From: a virus
Lineage: Duplodnaviria; Heunggongvirae; Uroviricota; Caudoviricetes
Length of the DNA stretch: 32,229 nt
Reading direction: 5' to 3' (one strand)
Virus record (IMG/VR): IMGVR_UViG_2529292920_000016
Part shown: piece after piece, positions 4,534-22,863 of the stretch
How positions within the stretch are numbered: the stretch's first letter is position 1
How the letters are laid out: each line of letters begins with the position of its first letter
The notes under the pieces: generated by a model
What the model was told of the DNA's origin: nothing
Database searches by the model: none
The model's input: the letters and a program-made list of their open reading frames with translations, nothing else
Program-made: the position numbers and the translations under genes

Positions 4534-4586
4534 GGGCGGCAGAGCAGTCACGGAGTAAAACTGATACCGCCAAACGTCACCAGAAA
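4534..4586 (-). ncRNA. dicF: DicF small RNA (ftsZ-targeting sRNA)
   Basis: The minus strand reads TTTCTGGTGACGTTTGGCGGTATCAGTTTTACTCCGTGACTGCTCTGCCGCCC followed by TTTTT (4529-4533). This is the 53-nt DicF sequence as I recall it, with its terminator. Confidence 0.85.
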
Positions 4587-12983: not shown

Positions 12984-13242
12984 TTTAACTATGAATTATT
13001 ATATTGTAAAGTAATCAGGTAAGATATGTTAGACAGTGAGACTATTGCCTTACAGAATTCATTATTCTTATGGATCGCCTTTCTGACTGATTTCATATTG
13101 GCGGGGTAACGGGAGTTAAGTAGAATGGCTGCGGGTGCTTGAGGCTATCTGTCTCAGGCATGAACACCAAAGGCAGATAGAGAAAAGCCCCAGTTAACAT
13201 TACGCGTCCTGCAAGACGCTTAACATTAATCTGAGGCCAATT

Positions 13243-14331
13243 TCATGCTAGACACATGTAGGTTAGCCTCTTACGTGCCGGAAGGCAAGGAGATGTATGG
13301 GTCCACCACATATTGCAATTTTTATTCTCTTTTAAAATATATTCCACGGGCGTCATTAGTGCGAGCGCCTTGTGGGGTCTTTTGCTGTTATACAGCACCA
13401 GATATTCCGCCAGCTTCTGGTTAAATAGCGCCAGATCTTCAAAGAGTAAAATCTCATTAAATTCAATAAACTGCTCTCTTAACGTCCGGTTAAAACGTTC
13501 ACAGATAGCGTTCATTTTTGGCGTGTAGGGATAGGTCCAGAGGTGTTTGATAGCGGCTTCCTGCAGCGTTTTGTCGAAGTTTCCCAGGAACTCTTTTCCG
13601 TTATCTGTGATTATCTGGCTGATACCGACCGGGAACAACCGGGCTGCGCGGCTGAAGAAGTGATTGACGATATCACTGTTGAGTGACGGCACAGCCAGCG
13701 CCAGCGCGTAATTGCTGCATTCGTCGATCATGGTGATGACATAGCGACGCAGTTCGCCCATTCTGAGCTCAATGGCGTCCATCCCAATGAGCTCACCTGT
13801 CTTTACCGGGCGGTAGTGCTTTGGCCTGCGGGGTTTGGCAGACCGCTTTTTGACAAGCAGTGCCTTCCCCCGCGATCCCAGACGCACAGGTATCATCCGC
13901 ATTTTATCATGTGCGGCAGCGATCATTCTGCCGATGGTGGAAACACTCGGACAGGCCAGATAGCGCTGTTCGCACCAGGGCTTCAGGCGAACAAAAATCT
14001 GCTCTTTACCGAGGTTCGGCAGCTCTGTCCTGAGGCGTCGAATCTCTTTCAGCACATCGGGATGCCAGTGTTTTTTTCGTCGCACCAGAGGTGCCTTACT
14101 GTGCGGGATTAGCCCCTCAGGTCCTTCCTTGTTCAGTAACTGACGCCACCAGTAAAGCGTGCGGCAGGACACGCCAAAGGCTTCAGAAGCTGCAGAAATA
14201 CCGTGTTTATCCCAGAAGTGCAGAGCCTTCATTCTCATTGTTGCTATATCAGCCATCACTGAAAGCCTCAACGCATAATCGGCCGTTTGGTAGTACTTAG
14301 GATAGCCAACCATCAGATGCTGCATTTGCAT
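13243..14331 (-). CDS. DDE (rve-type) transposase, IS481-like single-ORF architecture
   Basis: 362-aa ORF with an N-terminal HTH. DDE candidates are GMDAIE, ITDNGKEF and NAICERFNRTL. The family guess is from architecture only. Confidence 0.75.
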   Translation of the reverse strand: MQMQHLMVGYPKYYQTADYALRLSVMADIATMRMKALHFWDKHGISAASEAFGVSCRTLYWWRQLLNKEGPEGLIPHSKAPLVRRKKHWHPDVLKEIRRLRTELPNLGKEQIFVRLKPWCEQRYLACPSVSTIGRMIAAAHDKMRMIPVRLGSRGKALLVKKRSAKPRRPKHYRPVKTGELIGMDAIELRMGELRRYVITMIDECSNYALALAVPSLNSDIVNHFFSRAARLFPVGISQIITDNGKEFLGNFDKTLQEAAIKHLWTYPYTPKMNAICERFNRTLREQFIEFNEILLFEDLALFNQKLAEYLVLYNSKRPHKALALMTPVEYILKENKNCNMWWTHTSPCLPARKRLTYMCLA

Positions 14332-18006: not shown

Positions 18007-19056
18007 ATGATTAATACTGTAAAAATATCCAGTTGTGAGTTAATCAACGCTGATTGCCTGGAATTTATCTAGACCTTACCGGAAAACTCTGTCGATCTGA
18101 TAGTCACAGACCCGCCATACTTTAAAGTGAAGCCCGAGGGCTGGGATAACCAGTGGGAGGGCGACGATGATTACCTGAAATGGCTGGACCAGTGTCTGGC
18201 GCAGTTCTGGCGGGTACTGAAGCCTGCCGGAAGTCTTTACCTGTTCTGTGGTCATCGCCTGGCATCTGACACCGAAATCATGATGCGTGAGCGCTTTAAT
18301 GTGCTGAACCACATTATCTGGGCGAAGCCGTCCGGACGCTGGAACGGGTGCAATAAGGAAAGTCTGCGGGCGTATTTTCCGGCAACAGAGCGCATTCTGT
18401 TTGCAGAACATTATCAGGGACCGTATCGCCCGAAAGATGATGGCTATGTGGCACAGGGGCGCGAGCTAAAACAGCACGTCATGGCCCCGCTGATTTCTTA
18501 CTTTCGTGATGCGCGTAAATCACTGGGAATAACGTCAAAACAGATAGCGGAAGCCACCGGAAAGAAAAACATGGCTTCGCACTGGTTTGGTACCAGTCAG
18601 TGGCAGTTACCGAACGAGGGTAATTACAACAAATTGCAGGCGTTGTTTGCGCGTGTTGCGGCAGAAAAACATCAGCGCGGGGAACTGGAAAAGCCACACC
18701 ACCAGCTGGTCAGCACATACAGTGAGCTGAACCGGCAGTATACGGAACTGCTGAGTGAATATAAAAATTTGCGGCGGTATTTCGGTGTGACGGCGCAGGT
18801 TCCGTACACCGATGTCTGGACGCATAAACCGGTGCAGTACTATCCAGGGAAACATCCGTGCGAAAAACCGGCAGAAATGCTGCAGCAGATAATCAACGCG
18901 AGCAGTCGTCCGGGAGACCTGGTTGCAGATTTTTTTATGGGTTCAGGTTCAACGGTAAAAGCGGCGATGGCACTGGGGCGTTGTGCGATTGGTGTTGAGC
19001 TGGAGACAGGACGTTTTGAACAGACAGTCAGGGAAGTTCAGGATTTAATCGTTTGA
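18007..19056 (+). pseudogene. DNA methyltransferase (DPPY, beta-class order) with premature amber codon
   Basis: ATG 18007 gives MINTVKISSCELINADCLEFI, then TAG (18070-18072), then TLPENSVDLIVTDPPY... The AdoMet motif DFFMGSGST is near the C-terminus. The track ORF begins only at GTG 18127, after DPPY. Confidence 0.75.
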
Positions 19057-19105
19057 AACGGATGGGATTGCAGAATTAATTACGCACCATTATTATTCTG
19101 CTACC

Positions 19106-19181
19106 GGCCCTTTAGCTCAGTGGTGAGAGCGAGCGACTCATAATCGCCAGGTCGCTGGTTCAAATCCAGCAAGGGCCACCA
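19106..19181 (+). tRNA. tRNA with CAU anticodon, ileX/ileZ-like (Ile2) or Met
   Basis: Acceptor GGCCCTT/AAGGGCC, anticodon loop CTCATAA, T-loop GGTTCAAATCC and encoded CCA. Close to E. coli ileX as recalled. Confidence 0.85.
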
Positions 19182-19190
19182 TCACATACC

Positions 19191-19260
19191 GCCATTAGCT
19201 CATCGGCAGAGAGCGTCAGCTTTCGAAACTGGCTGTGTGGGGCCCGGGTCCCCGATGGCA
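19191..19260 (+). tRNA. Degenerate tRNA-like element (possible Arg-UCG pseudo-tRNA)
   Basis: Acceptor-like GCCATT.../...GATGGC and D-arm GCTCATCGGCAGAGAGC. The loop TTTCGAA sits on an imperfect stem. The T-arm GGGGCCCGGGTCCCC lacks TTC. Confidence 0.3.
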
Positions 19261-19278
19261 ATCCATTATCTGCATTAT

Positions 19279-19355
19279 GCGTTGTTAGCTCAGCCGGACA
19301 GAGCAATTGCCTTCTAAGCAATCGGTCACTGGTTCGAATCCAGTACAACGCGCCA
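19279..19355 (+). tRNA. tRNA-Arg (UCU)
   Basis: Acceptor GCGTTGT/ACAACGC, anticodon loop CTTCTAA, T-loop GGTTCGAATCC and encoded CCA. Confidence 0.85.
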
Positions 19356-19465
19356 TATTCATTCTTCCAGATTTCTTCCGGCAGAGCCTTATACTGGAAT
19401 ATACTTGGCTCAGGATATTGTTGAAAATATTATATGTTTGTCAAAAATAAAAGTTCTGTTAAGTA

Positions 19466-19819
19466 TTGATTGAGTGTTTGTTATACGGTCTAATGGTTTT
19501 TTCAGTATTAAATATTTATCATTCATATGGTGTGGGTAGAGTGAATATTGATGAGGCGTCGGGGTGTTTCATCCTTAGGCAGCGTATTGATATAGTCAAT
19601 GCAGCACGAGCAAAGGCCTTCAGCCGTTTGACAGTTTTGTTCTGTACTCCTGATCGTCTTTCGGGAAGAGACGTTATTCTTCTGAATAGTGATGCTATAC
19701 AGAGGGTTTGCGATGAGTTCATGGTTGCTAATTCAGAATTATTTGCTCTTGTTCAGGAGTACAACAGAATAGCCAGGACCTGTGGTATGGATGAACTTCG
19801 GATTACTCATCTGGGGTAG
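19466..19819 (+). CDS. Hypothetical protein in the slot where Stx phages carry stx (start uncertain)
   Basis: Open frame of 117 codons. Candidate starts are ATG 19493 and GTG 19541, neither with a good RBS. No family recognised. Confidence 0.35.
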   Translation: MIECLLYGLMVFSVLNIYHSYGVGRVNIDEASGCFILRQRIDIVNAARAKAFSRLTVLFCTPDRLSGRDVILLNSDAIQRVCDEFMVANSELFALVQEYNRIARTCGMDELRITHLG

Positions 19820-20195
19820 ATACATATCTGGATTATCACCTGTTACGGTAAAAAGTGATTGCTTACTGTTTTTGTGAATGGCATTGCAGCAGCCGGATAA
19901 TGTCAGTGCTGGCTGACTGTGTACTGGTGGCGGGTGTGGTGGTTGTTGCTTTCCCGTTGCTGAAAAAGAAAACGCCAGACTGTTAGTCGGAGAAATTTTT
20001 AAATACTTCACAATTCAGGCGGTTGACTGTTGTCTGGTTTGCGGGGAGTTTGTTAAAAGAAACTGGCATGGTGAATCCACCTGTGCGGAGGGGCAATCAG
20101 CGAGTAGGTATATGGGATAATCGCGGATTCAGGTGCTGGTACTGAATTCACCGGGAGGCACCCGGCACCATGCAATGGCACATAGCGCCACTCTC

Positions 20196-20231
20196 CAGCC
20201 CCTCTCCGGAGGGGCTGTTTATATTGATTTT
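20196..20231 (+). terminator. Strong rho-independent terminator
   Basis: CAGCCCCTC-TCCG-GAGGGGCTG (9-bp stem) followed by TTTATATTGATTTT. Confidence 0.75.
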
Positions 20232-20251
20232 GTCAGATGTGAGTAAACTCC

Positions 20252-20587
20252 TTATGGACTTTGTTGTTTTAGTCCATAAGGACATATTTGCAGAGTGCAA
20301 CGGTTATTAAAGCATTCATTCAATACGTTATCTGTATTTGTAGGGCATTCCTGGCTGTTTTTGATTAAATTCCAGAATGTTTTATTGAATGGTACTACGT
20401 TGTAAATGGTTACAGGTAGCACTTTGTTATTGAGCATGATACCTGTGTGAGTCAGTGTAAATATACTTTCAGGAGGTAAGAAAGCATCCGATTGATACCA
20501 GATTATTAATTTTATTTTACTCCATATGACTGAAAAAGATATTCCGCATGATGGCTGGATAACTGTATCAATCACAATCCACTTCAT
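20252..20587 (-). CDS. Hypothetical 111-aa Cys-containing protein, antisense to the late operon
   Basis: AT-rich ORF on the strand opposite its neighbours. An AT-rich divergent region (20588-20790) is shared with nanS. No motif recognised. Confidence 0.45.
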
Positions 20588-20801
20588 TTAGTTTCCTTGT
20601 TTATGCCTTGCTGGTGATGTTCTGAAAAGTATAAATGATATTTTTGATTGTAAACCATAGAGCAGAATTATTTTTCTGATGTAGTTTATCCATGCATATC
20701 TGCTTGATGATGAGGTTTTTATTTAAGGTATGGTTTTGTGTTTTTTCTGTATTACATGTCAGGTATTTTAAAGAATTATTCTTCAGATGGTGGAAAGAAC
20801 C

Positions 20802-22652
20802 ATGGCATTTAAACACTATGATGTTGTCAGGGCGGCGTCGCCGTCAGATCTTGCGGAAAAGCTGACACATAAACTGAAAGAGGGCTGGCAGCCGTTTGGT
20901 AGTCCGGTGGCCATAACCCCTTATACCCTGATGCAGGCGATTGCAGCAGAAGGTGATATGGTCGTCAGTGGTGCAACTGAGCCAGAGTGGTACTACGTCA
21001 TCGTACTGGCCGGGCAATCCAATGCCATGGCTTACGGTGAAGGGCTTCCGCTTCCGGATTCATACGATGCGCCTCATCCGCGCATTAAGCAACTGGCCCG
21101 TCGTAACACAGTGACTCCCGGTGGTGAAGTATGCGTATTTAACGACATCATTCCTGCTGACCATTGTCTGCATGATGTTCAGGATATGAGTACGATTAAC
21201 CATCCCCGGGCTGACCTGAGCAAAGGGCAGTACGGCTGTGTCGGACAGGGCTTACATATTGCCAAAAAACTGCTTCCGTATATCCCTAATAATGCGGGGA
21301 TCCTGCTGGTACCATGCTGTCGTGGTGGTTCGGCATTCACCCAGGGCACGGAGGGGACATTCAGCGAGTCCACGGGGGCCAGTCAGGATTCGGCTCGCTG
21401 GGGAGTGGGTAAGCCGTTATATCAGGATCTGCTTTTCCGCACGAAGGCAGCATTGCAGAAAAACCCGAAAAACGTTTTGCTGGCGATATGCTGGATGCAG
21501 GGGGAATTCGATATGACGAATGCCAGTTACGCCCAGCAGCCAGCAGCATTTCTTGCAATGGTACAGCAGTTCCGTGCTGACTTTGCCGGGCTGGCGGCGC
21601 AGTGTCACGGTGGAAGTCCGGCATCAGTCCCCTGGATTTGTGGCGACACGACATACGCGTGGAAACAAGAACACGGTACGCAATATGAAGTGGTATATGG
21701 TGCATATAAAGGTAAAGAATCCCAGCAGATTTATTTTGTTCCCTTTATGACCGATGGTAGCGGAGTTAATACACCGACAAACAACCCGTCAGAAGATCCT
21801 GATATTGCCGGGTCTGGTTATTACGGTTCGGCATCCCGAACGAACAAAAACTGGGTATCATCAAATCGCCCGACGCATTTCAGCTCATGGACGCGTCGTG
21901 GCATTATTCCCGATCGTATGGCAACTGCTATTCTGAACGTAGCCGGTCGCACCTTAGCCTTCATTAGTGGTAAGGCACCGGAAATCAAACCCTCGCCCGG
22001 CGGCGACACGCCATCGGGGCCGTCTGAAGATGCATCCGTACGCACAATCTCCCTGTTGCCGACAGCCGGAGATGCTGCTGCGCAGGGCTGGAGCATTAAG
22101 AATGGCGGAATTCAGTTGTCAGATGGTGTATTTAAGATCACCAAGCAGAGCAATAAAACCTGGTCCCTGATGCATCCGGTGGATGACGCAATTACCCTGC
22201 TGACACAGGGCGGCAGACTGACCTGTAAGTTCCGCCTCTCAGGCGCACTGACCAACAATCAGTTCGGGCTGGGGATTTATCTGTATACGGACGCTCCCGT
22301 TCCTGATGATGTGGCGATGACGGGTACTGGTAATCCGTTCCTGATGTCTTACTTCACTCAGACCACTGACGGCAGAGTGAATCTGATGCATCACAGGAAA
22401 GCCGGAAACACGAAGCTGGGGGAGTTCGGCGATTACGGTAACGACTGGCAGACGCTGGAGCTGGTGTTCACCGCCGGCAGTGCCACGGTTACTCCGAAAC
22501 TGAATGGAGTGGCTGGCCCGGCATTCCAGGTTATAAAAGACAGTCTGACACTGGGACTGAATGCGCTGACGCTGACGGATGTTACAAAAAATGCAGCGTA
22601 TGGCGTTGAGATAGAAAGTCTGGTGCTGGAGATAAATGCACCGGCAGCATAA
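20802..22652 (+). CDS. nanS: Prophage sialate O-acetylesterase (NanS-p type)
   Basis: N-terminal MAFKHYDVVRAASPSDLAEKL (DUF1737-like), then an esterase core (VLAGQSNA Ser motif) and a C-terminal beta-rich domain. This is the usual position downstream of the stx slot. Confidence 0.75.
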   Translation: MAFKHYDVVRAASPSDLAEKLTHKLKEGWQPFGSPVAITPYTLMQAIAAEGDMVVSGATEPEWYYVIVLAGQSNAMAYGEGLPLPDSYDAPHPRIKQLARRNTVTPGGEVCVFNDIIPADHCLHDVQDMSTINHPRADLSKGQYGCVGQGLHIAKKLLPYIPNNAGILLVPCCRGGSAFTQGTEGTFSESTGASQDSARWGVGKPLYQDLLFRTKAALQKNPKNVLLAICWMQGEFDMTNASYAQQPAAFLAMVQQFRADFAGLAAQCHGGSPASVPWICGDTTYAWKQEHGTQYEVVYGAYKGKESQQIYFVPFMTDGSGVNTPTNNPSEDPDIAGSGYYGSASRTNKNWVSSNRPTHFSSWTRRGIIPDRMATAILNVAGRTLAFISGKAPEIKPSPGGDTPSGPSEDASVRTISLLPTAGDAAAQGWSIKNGGIQLSDGVFKITKQSNKTWSLMHPVDDAITLLTQGGRLTCKFRLSGALTNNQFGLGIYLYTDAPVPDDVAMTGTGNPFLMSYFTQTTDGRVNLMHHRKAGNTKLGEFGDYGNDWQTLELVFTAGSATVTPKLNGVAGPAFQVIKDSLTLGLNALTLTDVTKNAAYGVEIESLVLEINAPAA

Positions 22653-22863
22653 TAAAAAAGCCAGCGCCCACTCTGAAGGACGCTGGCTAAAACGGGTAGA
22701 TGTACTTCACATGATACTTATACTTGGCAGTACATTTTCTGACAGACAGTGACGGATGTTGTCAAGATATTGTGTCATTTATAACCTGAATCAGGGGTTG
22801 GCCGGAATGTTATCTGGCATTTTTAGCAGAGCCTGAATGCCATAATCACGGCTCCCGGCGTTG

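Follow-up and report, generated by a model that had tools for sequence, protein, structure and literature searches.

What does a lambdoid prophage hold at the place where Shiga toxin (Stx) phages carry stx, when the toxin genes are not there? The question is raised by positions 19,360 to 20,231 of a 32,229-nucleotide stretch of DNA (the window) from a Caudoviricetes virus, IMG/VR record IMGVR_UViG_2529292920_000016. The original prediction had stated that no stx genes follow the tRNA genes of this locus, and we found no stx-like open reading frame (ORF). It had further described the content as unknown and as ending in a structured, terminated RNA. The content instead belongs to catalogued families, namely the RNA family STnc100, the Pfam family DUF3927, and the phage protein family phrog_2873. 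STnc100 is a prophage small RNA (sRNA) that is already in the catalogues, and by sequence the structured, terminated RNA is one of its copies. The Rfam/Infernal scan that had been proposed as a check was run, and the STnc100 model (RF02076) matched 20037-20226 on the plus strand over its full length (model positions 1-206), scoring 123.6 bits with an E value of 6.6e-27, where the gathering score is 47 bits. We place the gene at 20009-20226 on the plus strand, a length of approximately 218 nucleotides (nt), and the best explanation overall, one that we consider likely, is that its product is a trans-acting sRNA of the STnc100 family. The idea of an sRNA at a site known for the regulatory RNAs of enterohaemorrhagic Escherichia coli (EHEC) phages is upheld by this match and by relatives that are Hfq-bound, northern-verified, and located 3' of stx2B.

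These relatives have been described by several groups. Tree 2014 (PMC4104026) reported the convergent Hfq-bound sRNAs EcOnc27 and EcOnc02/AsxR 3' of stx2B at a 'moron' site, with the same organisation in Sp3, 4, 9, 10, 11, 15 and 17. EcOnc27 was crosslinked to Hfq and gave northern bands of ~235 and 247 nt, the 247-nt species being destabilised without Hfq (PMC4104026). The STnc100 downstream of stx2 is the same RNA as EcOnc27/sRNA103, and fimZ and espA transcripts increased upon overexpression of sRNA103/EcOnc27 (PMC12711010). Strain EDL933 has 11 expressed STnc100 copies, one of them verified by northern blot (PMC5331693). STnc100 was also found in vesicles of Stx-producing E. coli strains, where it lies 75 nt after stx2, and sequence variants of the STnc100 copy in Stx2 phages show a statistical link with the risk of haemolytic uraemic syndrome. 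A common ancestor for STnc100 and PasD1/PasD2 of E2348/69, a strain of enteropathogenic E. coli (EPEC), was the conclusion of Zhu, Shabalina and Storz 2026.

The genomic setting of the window's copy is that of the family. STnc100 scored 207.7 bits in Stx2 phage VT2phi_272, starting 75 nt after the stx2B stop codon with AsxR convergent on the minus strand, 185.7 bits in Stx2_PV11-59, and 158.5 bits in phage 1717, where a minus-strand iraM follows, an arrangement common to the window and this Stx2c phage. The gene 5' of STnc100-family copies was DUF3927 in 73 of 135 cases and stx2B in nine of 135; 14 of the 73 DUF3927-preceded copies also had a homologue of the 117-residue protein described below, and an esterase gene lay 3' of the sRNA in 95 of 116 copies. 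The copy in the window occupies the same prophage late-region context, after moron cargo and before esterase and lysis genes, and its core, apart from an adenine at 20079 (A20079), is the commonest allele among the fetched IMG/VR loci (n=37). The locus is an ordinary one and in essence was known before, with a catalogued sRNA family sitting at a prophage site that has been well described. It presents the sRNA usually seen just after stx2B as the fixed right-hand border of the cargo slot of lambdoid prophages, regardless of what fills the slot.

The structured core assigned by cmscan spans 20066-20173 on the plus strand and contains the helices P1 (20066-73 with 20166-73), P2 (20078-82 with 20089-93, including an A.G mismatch at 20079), P4 (20125-32 with 20142-49), and P5 (20151-55 with 20161-65). 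The minimum free energy (MFE) fold of 20066-20226, at -66.1 kcal/mol (z -2.7), reproduced P1, P4, P5, and the terminator. The original prediction had proposed a different architecture, in which GGTGAAT (20070-76) pairs with ATTCACC (20146-52) and CACCTG (20078-83) with CAGGTG (20130-35) as nested main helices, along with GAATCC:GGATTC and the hairpin CCGGG-AGGCA-CCCGG as alternatives. All of these complementary segments are present, and the stretch is indeed GC-richer (G+C 0.54 at 20050-20199 vs 0.29-0.48 in the flanks). The two architectures were compared on two alignments. The first, A2, holds 38 aligned of 50 distinct cores from relatives collected in IMG/VR with the motif GCATGGTGAATCCNCCT. 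Because this motif fixed the 5' strand of P1, a second, independent collection was anchored on a P5 motif with one genome per species, and gave the anchor-built, genus-wide alignment A4. All 16 of the 16 P5-motif loci tested reached the STnc100 threshold (Kosakonia, Pluralibacter, Salmonella diarizonae, Enterobacter, Atlantibacter, Raoultella, Pantoea, Phytobacter, Cedecea, Klebsiella, and others).

On A2, the Rfam-type fold had 97.2% of its cells paired and contained 34 double-change cells compared with 11.7 ± 4.8 in shuffled columns, a level reached in none of 500 shuffles on the double-change measure. The two nested helices were 83.9% paired with a single double-change cell (1.0 ± 0.8 when shuffled), and 320 of 500 shuffles did as well on the percent-paired measure; one of the proposed pairs was broken in 19 of the 38 sequences and the second helix was only 73% paired. 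On A4, P1 alone was 91.7% paired with 55 double-change cells against 20.4 ± 5.8 (0 of 500 shuffles, double-change measure), and GGTGAAT:ATTCACC was 85.3% paired with one such cell against 0.1 ± 0.3 (66 of 500 shuffles, percent-paired measure). Three pairs of P4 covaried on A2 (G-C/A-U 18:16; A-U/G-C/U-A), and P1 on A4 showed both-side changes in six of its eight pairs, with a covariation score of 0.46 vs at most 0.21 when the partner strand was slid. In the six A4 sequences that carry a G to A change at the position of window 20071, the partner in GGTGAAT:ATTCACC stays C and the P1 partner becomes U; Sakai Sp9 has the same compensatory change, GCATGATG ... CATCATGC. The conserved fold is the Rfam fold, backed by covariation. 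The nested helices pair no better than shuffled columns and do not covary (A2, n=38), so that the proposed covariation check supports the Rfam fold and leaves them without support. Of the alternative pairings, the CCGGG/CCCGG hairpin survives as P5 of the conserved fold and GAATCC:GGATTC conflicts with the covarying P4. The segment CACCTG owes its existence solely to A20079, which breaks the second P2 pair and occurs only in the window and in the copy of prophage PP5 of E2348/69.

Many genera of Enterobacteriaceae have the STnc100 core, with ACCGGGAGGCACCCGG and UGAAUCC near-invariant and P1 freely covarying, and its layout, a closing helix abutting a 5-bp hairpin, is loosely tRNA-like. The GGGAGGC common to PasD and STnc100 was invariant in A2 and A4, in A4 partly imposed by the search pattern.

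Upstream of the core, the 5' leader (20009-20065, plus strand) carries the conserved blocks CACAATTCAG, GTTGACNGTTGNCTG, and TTTGTTAAAAGAAAC, which are A-rich and ARN-like, and its conservation was seen in 61 distinct upstream variants. STnc100-type copies share an upstream region of their own, TCACAATTCAG ... GTTGACNGTTGNCTG ... TTTGTTAAAA. The stretch homologous to the leader was crosslinked to Hfq in Sakai Sp5 and Sp9. With Sakai coordinates calibrated on AsxR, which lies 282 nt after stx2B as published, the Hfq peaks from crosslinking and analysis of cDNA (CRAC) could be placed: that of EcOnc27 took in 40 nt on the 5' side of GCATGG, and that of EcOnc28 in Sp9 had its start exactly at CTCACAATTCAG. 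Sp5 has ~232 nt between TCACAATTCAG and the terminator, which fits the ~235-nt northern band. Because of these Hfq peaks and the northern size, the 5' end of the window's RNA was placed near 20009, which by analogy would probably give a length of ~218 nt. A hexamer resembling a -10 element, TTAAAT (19999-20004, plus strand), lies 4 nt upstream of the conserved CACAATTC and may be part of the promoter; relatives have TTAAAT, TAATCT, TGAAAT, or TTACAT at the same position. A transcription start at GCATGG (promoter TTGTCT-17-TTAAAA; RNA 20066-20226) was considered and rejected: it fits the mapped 5' end of PasD2 at 741157, but for STnc100-type copies the Hfq peaks and the northern band sizes in Sakai contradict it.

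At the other end of the RNA, the predicted terminator with a 9-bp stem was confirmed by the terminator scan. This intrinsic terminator (20196-20231, plus strand), also a helix in the cmscan output, has its stem-loop at 20196-20217, with seven G-C pairs in the 9-bp stem and a 4-nt loop, followed by the U-rich tail TTTATATTGA. Between P1 and the terminator lies a variable linker, AAUGGCACAUAGCGCCACUCUC (20174-20195, plus strand), a candidate seed region. The same core was found joined 3' of P1 to at least six unrelated linker/terminator cassettes, including some hybrids of an STnc100 core and a PasD-like terminator. The UGUGAG seed of PasD occupies the equivalent place just 5' of the PasD terminator, and by this analogy we infer that the linker, which ends in the anti-Shine-Dalgarno-like CCACUCUCC, is the likeliest seed. 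The leader GGGGAGU (20043-49) and the linker ACUCUCC (20189-95) form a long-range helix in the MFE fold, for which we make no claim of conservation; cognate leader/tail pairs gave -13.7 vs -12.2 kcal/mol for non-cognate pairs (p=0.017, with data that are not independent), and one and the same leader is found joined to several tails. We also rejected a peptide encoded in the sRNA (SD-like GGGAGG, ATG at 20170; 46-residue ORF 20170-20310), as neither the ATG nor what follows it is conserved from genus to genus and the tails bear no relation to one another, and EcOnc15 as Hfq evidence for this 3' tail, as EcOnc15 lies between Q and stx1A and is a different RNA. Tandem STnc100-family copies, two or three per contig or within a few kb, were seen in eight IMG/VR contigs and in two Enterobacteriaceae genomes; the IMG/VR copies are 230-480 nt apart and differ in their central hairpins and 3' cassettes.

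Taken in order, the RNA would comprise a leader rich in A, a core of several helices that P1 closes, a short variable linker, and an intrinsic terminator. In the mechanism that we propose, this copy would be transcribed in the lysogen from a weak promoter of its own, and Hfq would bind through the A-rich leader and the U-tail of the terminator. The RNA may then act in trans by limited base pairing through the variable linker 5' of the terminator, with its anti-Shine-Dalgarno-like CCACUCUCC, while the conserved core could serve as a stabilising or protein-docking scaffold. Relatives form discrete transcripts in lysogens with Hfq at the leader, and PasD yields many Hfq-mediated chimeras with mRNAs.

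Several observations weigh against this mechanism. A scan for consensus sigma-70 promoters found none for the sRNA and did not pick up TTAAAT. The 5' end is positioned from relatives, and those of PasD type start 57 nt further downstream, at GCATGG. The seed is assigned by analogy with PasD. The U-tract UUUAUAUUGAUUUUGU is interrupted, the copy-specific A20079 weakens P2, and the EPEC tables from the sequencing of ligated, interacting RNAs (RIL-seq), which cover two growth conditions, show no plus-strand chimera at NC_011601 1288141-1288358 among the chimeras listed, only the mRNA of the iraM homologue with Spot 42. These last three points would suit a genuine STnc100 member that has become a decaying or silent copy in a defective prophage, given that the P2 mismatch is peculiar to this copy, that the U-tract is weak, and that PasD1/PasD2 and PasC of the same strain are prominent in the Hfq RIL-seq data; IS insertions near the locus in E2348/69 PP5 point the same way. 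Yet the core is otherwise the commonest allele, the other helices and the leader are intact, and the RIL-seq evidence consists of listed chimeras from two growth conditions. We regard a silent copy as quite unlikely.

The outcome of the promoter scan is also what would be expected if the element were mainly a cis-acting 3' module, that is, an end with structure, or a terminator, by which the slot gene is stabilised or insulated, with the RNA being a processed fragment of the 3' untranslated region (UTR) that has no targets of its own. The element always directly follows the cargo ORF, whichever that is (DUF3927, stx2B, or others), its conservation begins ~6 nt from the DUF3927 stop codon, and the 247-nt species of EcOnc27 would start ~28 nt after stx2B. 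In the Pearl Mizrahi table, PasD2 is bracketed with its upstream gene, in a notation that appears to denote UTR-derived sRNAs. However, Sakai Sp9 (L131 1813-2335) has an empty cargo slot with its STnc100 copy directly after the tRNA genes, and this copy is still Hfq-bound (EcOnc28). In several copies from other genera, good sigma-70 promoters (TTGAC-17-TAnnnT) are positioned for a start at P1, the PasD relatives have numerous partners in trans, and the cassette-like swapping of 3' tails suits targeting modules better than a terminator. Collectively, these data make a purely local role unlikely. Beyond its STnc100 copy, Sp9 has a convergent terminator of the anti-sRNA type and then an esterase gene.

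For the preferred reading, a trans-acting STnc100-family sRNA, we also considered what the near-invariant core might do. It is conceivable, if rather doubtful, that the core (UGAAUCC ... ACCGGGAGGCACCCGG) is a docking platform for a host protein and that the leader and 3' cassettes are exchangeable targeting modules. The first protein to consider would be CsrA, since the most abundant of the CsrA-bound RNA pairs in EPEC is one formed by PasD2, with ~23,000 chimeric fragments in the CsrA interactome (bioRxiv 10.64898/2026.08.12.744399). Were this so, phages would have, at the edge of the moron slot, a 'guide RNA' of modular build, in many cases with a DUF3927 membrane peptide as its partner. 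The STnc100 family deserves experiments, although the window adds no new kind of element.

The two reading frames upstream of the RNA, a 117-codon frame and a 28-residue hydrophobic ORF, had been predicted and exist exactly at 19466-19819 (TTG start) and 19900-19986. By their sequences, both represent described protein families of unknown function. The 117-codon frame (plus strand) matched phrog_2873 with 231.7 bits over residues 10-117 and profile positions 1-108. Because the match spans these residues, the real start is probably the ATG at 19493, giving 108 residues. The frame has 17 homologues, one of them full-length at 57% identity and in a different context, and the differences from this homologue fall at the three codon positions in the ratio 34/32/55, with third positions enriched. 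That homologue lies in a diverged locus (L129 164-1686), which contains an AraC/HTH_18 regulator, the homologue itself, a 45-residue ORF, and an STnc100 match of 72 bits cut by the contig end. The AlphaFold2 model of the phrog_2873 frame is a hairpin of two long helices (mean local confidence, pLDDT, 70). The protein had no match in Pfam, NCBIfam, or PADLOC, and Foldseek against the PDB returned generic helical hairpins only, none at E<=0.001.

The 28-residue ORF is probably the C-terminal part of a 43-residue DUF3927 protein, a small hydrophobic protein also called 'TciB-like', which starts at GTG 19855 and ends at 19986 (plus strand; Pfam PF13064, phrog_1470). The 43-residue form scored 90.2 bits against PF13064 (profile 7-53) and the 28-residue form 53.6 bits (profile 26-53), with a cutoff of 25, and an in-frame TAA at 19849-51 bars any further 5' extension. 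The Prokaryotic Genome Annotation Pipeline (PGAP) annotates the 28-residue form as a DUF3927 family protein. The conservation of this ORF, which had been proposed as a check, is thus seen in DUF3927, genes of which also lie 5' of PasD1, PasD2, and the STnc100 copy of phage JLK-2012. A literature search on TciB/DUF3927 found nothing relevant.

The original prediction likened the 28-residue ORF to a type I toxin, and a toxin-antitoxin pair formed by the ORF and the downstream RNA was therefore weighed. The ORF is hydrophobic and short, 73 of 135 copies of the sRNA have it as a physically linked neighbour, and a bona fide hok/sok-type element occurs elsewhere in the window. The RNA, however, lies on the strand of the ORF and does not overlap it, and the likeness to a type I toxin is left unsupported: there is no antisense overlap, no excess complementarity (the duplex with the DUF3927 mRNA has z -0.63 vs shuffles, and the longest perfect complementary run is 7 nt), and no promoter-like site antisense to the ORF in the scan. 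Of the 135 copies of the sRNA, 62 lack DUF3927, among them copies that follow stx2B or stand alone (Sp9), and neither PADLOC, for the proteins tested, nor the toxin families gave a match. Such a pair is very improbable. Overall, the observation that had been made from the letters is partly confirmed and its interpretation partly supported.

The stretch is, judged by sequence comparison, the cargo ('moron') slot of a lambdoid prophage near-identical to PP5 of EPEC O127:H6 E2348/69. Window positions 8000-32229 are 99.7% identical to PP5 over 93% of their length, the differences being IS insertions in the E2348/69 genome, and 19360-20800 are 99.7% identical to NC_011601 1287492-1288978. The slot lies 3' of a Q-type antiterminator gene, a DNA methylase gene, and the ileZ/argO tRNA genes. 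Where Stx2 phages have stx2AB, its cargo is the phrog_2873 protein (108-117 residues) and the 43-residue hydrophobic DUF3927 protein, and it ends, as in Stx2 phages, with the STnc100-family sRNA gene, followed by a convergent iraM-like gene and a nanS-p esterase gene. RefSeq gives the order at the E2348/69 locus as methyltransferase, tRNA-Ile, tRNA-Arg, 28-residue 'DUF3927 family protein', minus-strand pseudo-CDS, 'anti-adapter protein IraM', and SASA esterase, with no ncRNA annotated. The gain for annotation is the sRNA, which RefSeq leaves unmarked in E2348/69, and the DUF3927 gene, which is called 15 codons short. The pseudo-CDS, a partial 'hypothetical protein' in RefSeq/PGAP, lies opposite the sRNA core (window 20056-20181, minus strand), and pseudo or hypothetical CDSs of a similar kind also lie over PasD2 and PasD1; such CDSs are probably annotation artefacts that arise from an unannotated sRNA.

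The left border of the slot is an ileZ-type tRNA gene with a CAT anticodon at 19106-19181 (plus strand; Met according to ARAGORN, 72.5 bits with the Rfam tRNA model, tRNA-Ile in the PGAP annotation of E2348/69). It is followed by a degenerate tRNA-like remnant at 19189-19262 (plus strand), at the argN position of Stx phages, which scored 22.2 bits with the Rfam tRNA model (threshold 29), was not called by ARAGORN, and corresponds to tRNA_25 of an older E2348/69 annotation, and by an argO-type tRNA-Arg (TCT) at 19279-19355 (plus strand), found by ARAGORN, Rfam, and PGAP. Convergent on the sRNA is a gene of the IraM anti-adaptor family of RssB inhibitors at 20252-20587 (minus strand; NCBIfam NF007393, 162 bits, cutoff 121; 'anti-adapter protein IraM' in PGAP), and the mRNA of its identical homologue E2348C_1245 accounts for 11 chimeras with Spot 42 in the EPEC RIL-seq data. 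The right border is a NanS-p-like esterase gene at 20787-22652 (plus strand; Pfam DUF1737, SASA, and DUF6645). Directly past its stop codon, at 22654-22730 on the minus strand, lies a sequence 100% identical over 77 nt to PasC of E2348/69 (NC_011601 1290832-1290909), an sRNA that is northern-validated and Hfq-dependent in that strain and has ~32 nt in common with PasA. Elsewhere in the prophage, Rfam matches above the gathering score were sok at 13133-13299 (plus strand, 112 bits) and DicF at 4534-4585 (minus strand, 76.7 bits); sok is a type I antitoxin RNA of the hok/sok type.

Among known systems, the closest is STnc100 itself, named EcOnc27 in O157 Sakai and sRNA103 in EDL933, with which the window's RNA shares the full covariance model match, P1, P4, P5, the terminator, the leader blocks, and the position between moron cargo and the nanS-p esterase and lysis genes. 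It differs from EcOnc27 in that DUF3927 and phrog_2873 stand as cargo in place of stx2AB, the variable hairpin in the centre has fewer nucleotides, the 3' linker/terminator cassette is not that of the Sp5 copy, the convergent gene is iraM and not AsxR, and A20079 weakens P2. PasD1 and PasD2 of EPEC E2348/69 (EcOnc13 in EHEC), which are northern-verified and have many RIL-seq partners, share the 5' core GCAUGGUGAAUCC, the P2 hairpin, P4, GGGAGGC, and the 3' strand of P1, with a DUF3927 gene 5' and esterase or lysis genes 3'. In contrast, they have no P5 hairpin, a different promoter region, a start at GCAUGG (172 nt), the seed UGUGAG, and another terminator; the alignment is confined to the 5' core, with no relation in the 3' part, and the PasD loci fall below the STnc100 gathering score. 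The window's RNA is the PP5 paralogue and not PasD itself, because the coordinates of PasD1/PasD2 fall in PP4/PP2 and PP5 holds PasC.

The more distant comparisons concern locus and concept. The AsxR/AgvB 'anti-sRNAs' belong to the same type of locus, and Stx2 phages have AsxR directly beyond STnc100, on the strand opposite to it; in the window the 3' end of iraM occupies this position, and 19000-21000 gave no Rfam match to AsxR/AgvB at the gathering score or at E<=1, whereas the positive control VT2phi_272 did. Type I toxin-antitoxin systems such as hok/sok likewise place a short hydrophobic ORF beside a small RNA in a prophage, but the window's pair has neither antisense overlap nor complementarity, and its RNA family also occurs without the ORF. 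IpeX of DLP12 was rejected as the same element, as K-12 DLP12 has no STnc100 match and nmpC is on the other strand. PasE, a CsrA-guiding sRNA (bioRxiv 10.64898/2026.08.12.744399), offers a parallel to the idea of a protein-docking part joined to an exchangeable seed, although it is an unrelated RNA of 56 nt, and in the window's RNA the GGA motifs lie at stem edges and not in loops.

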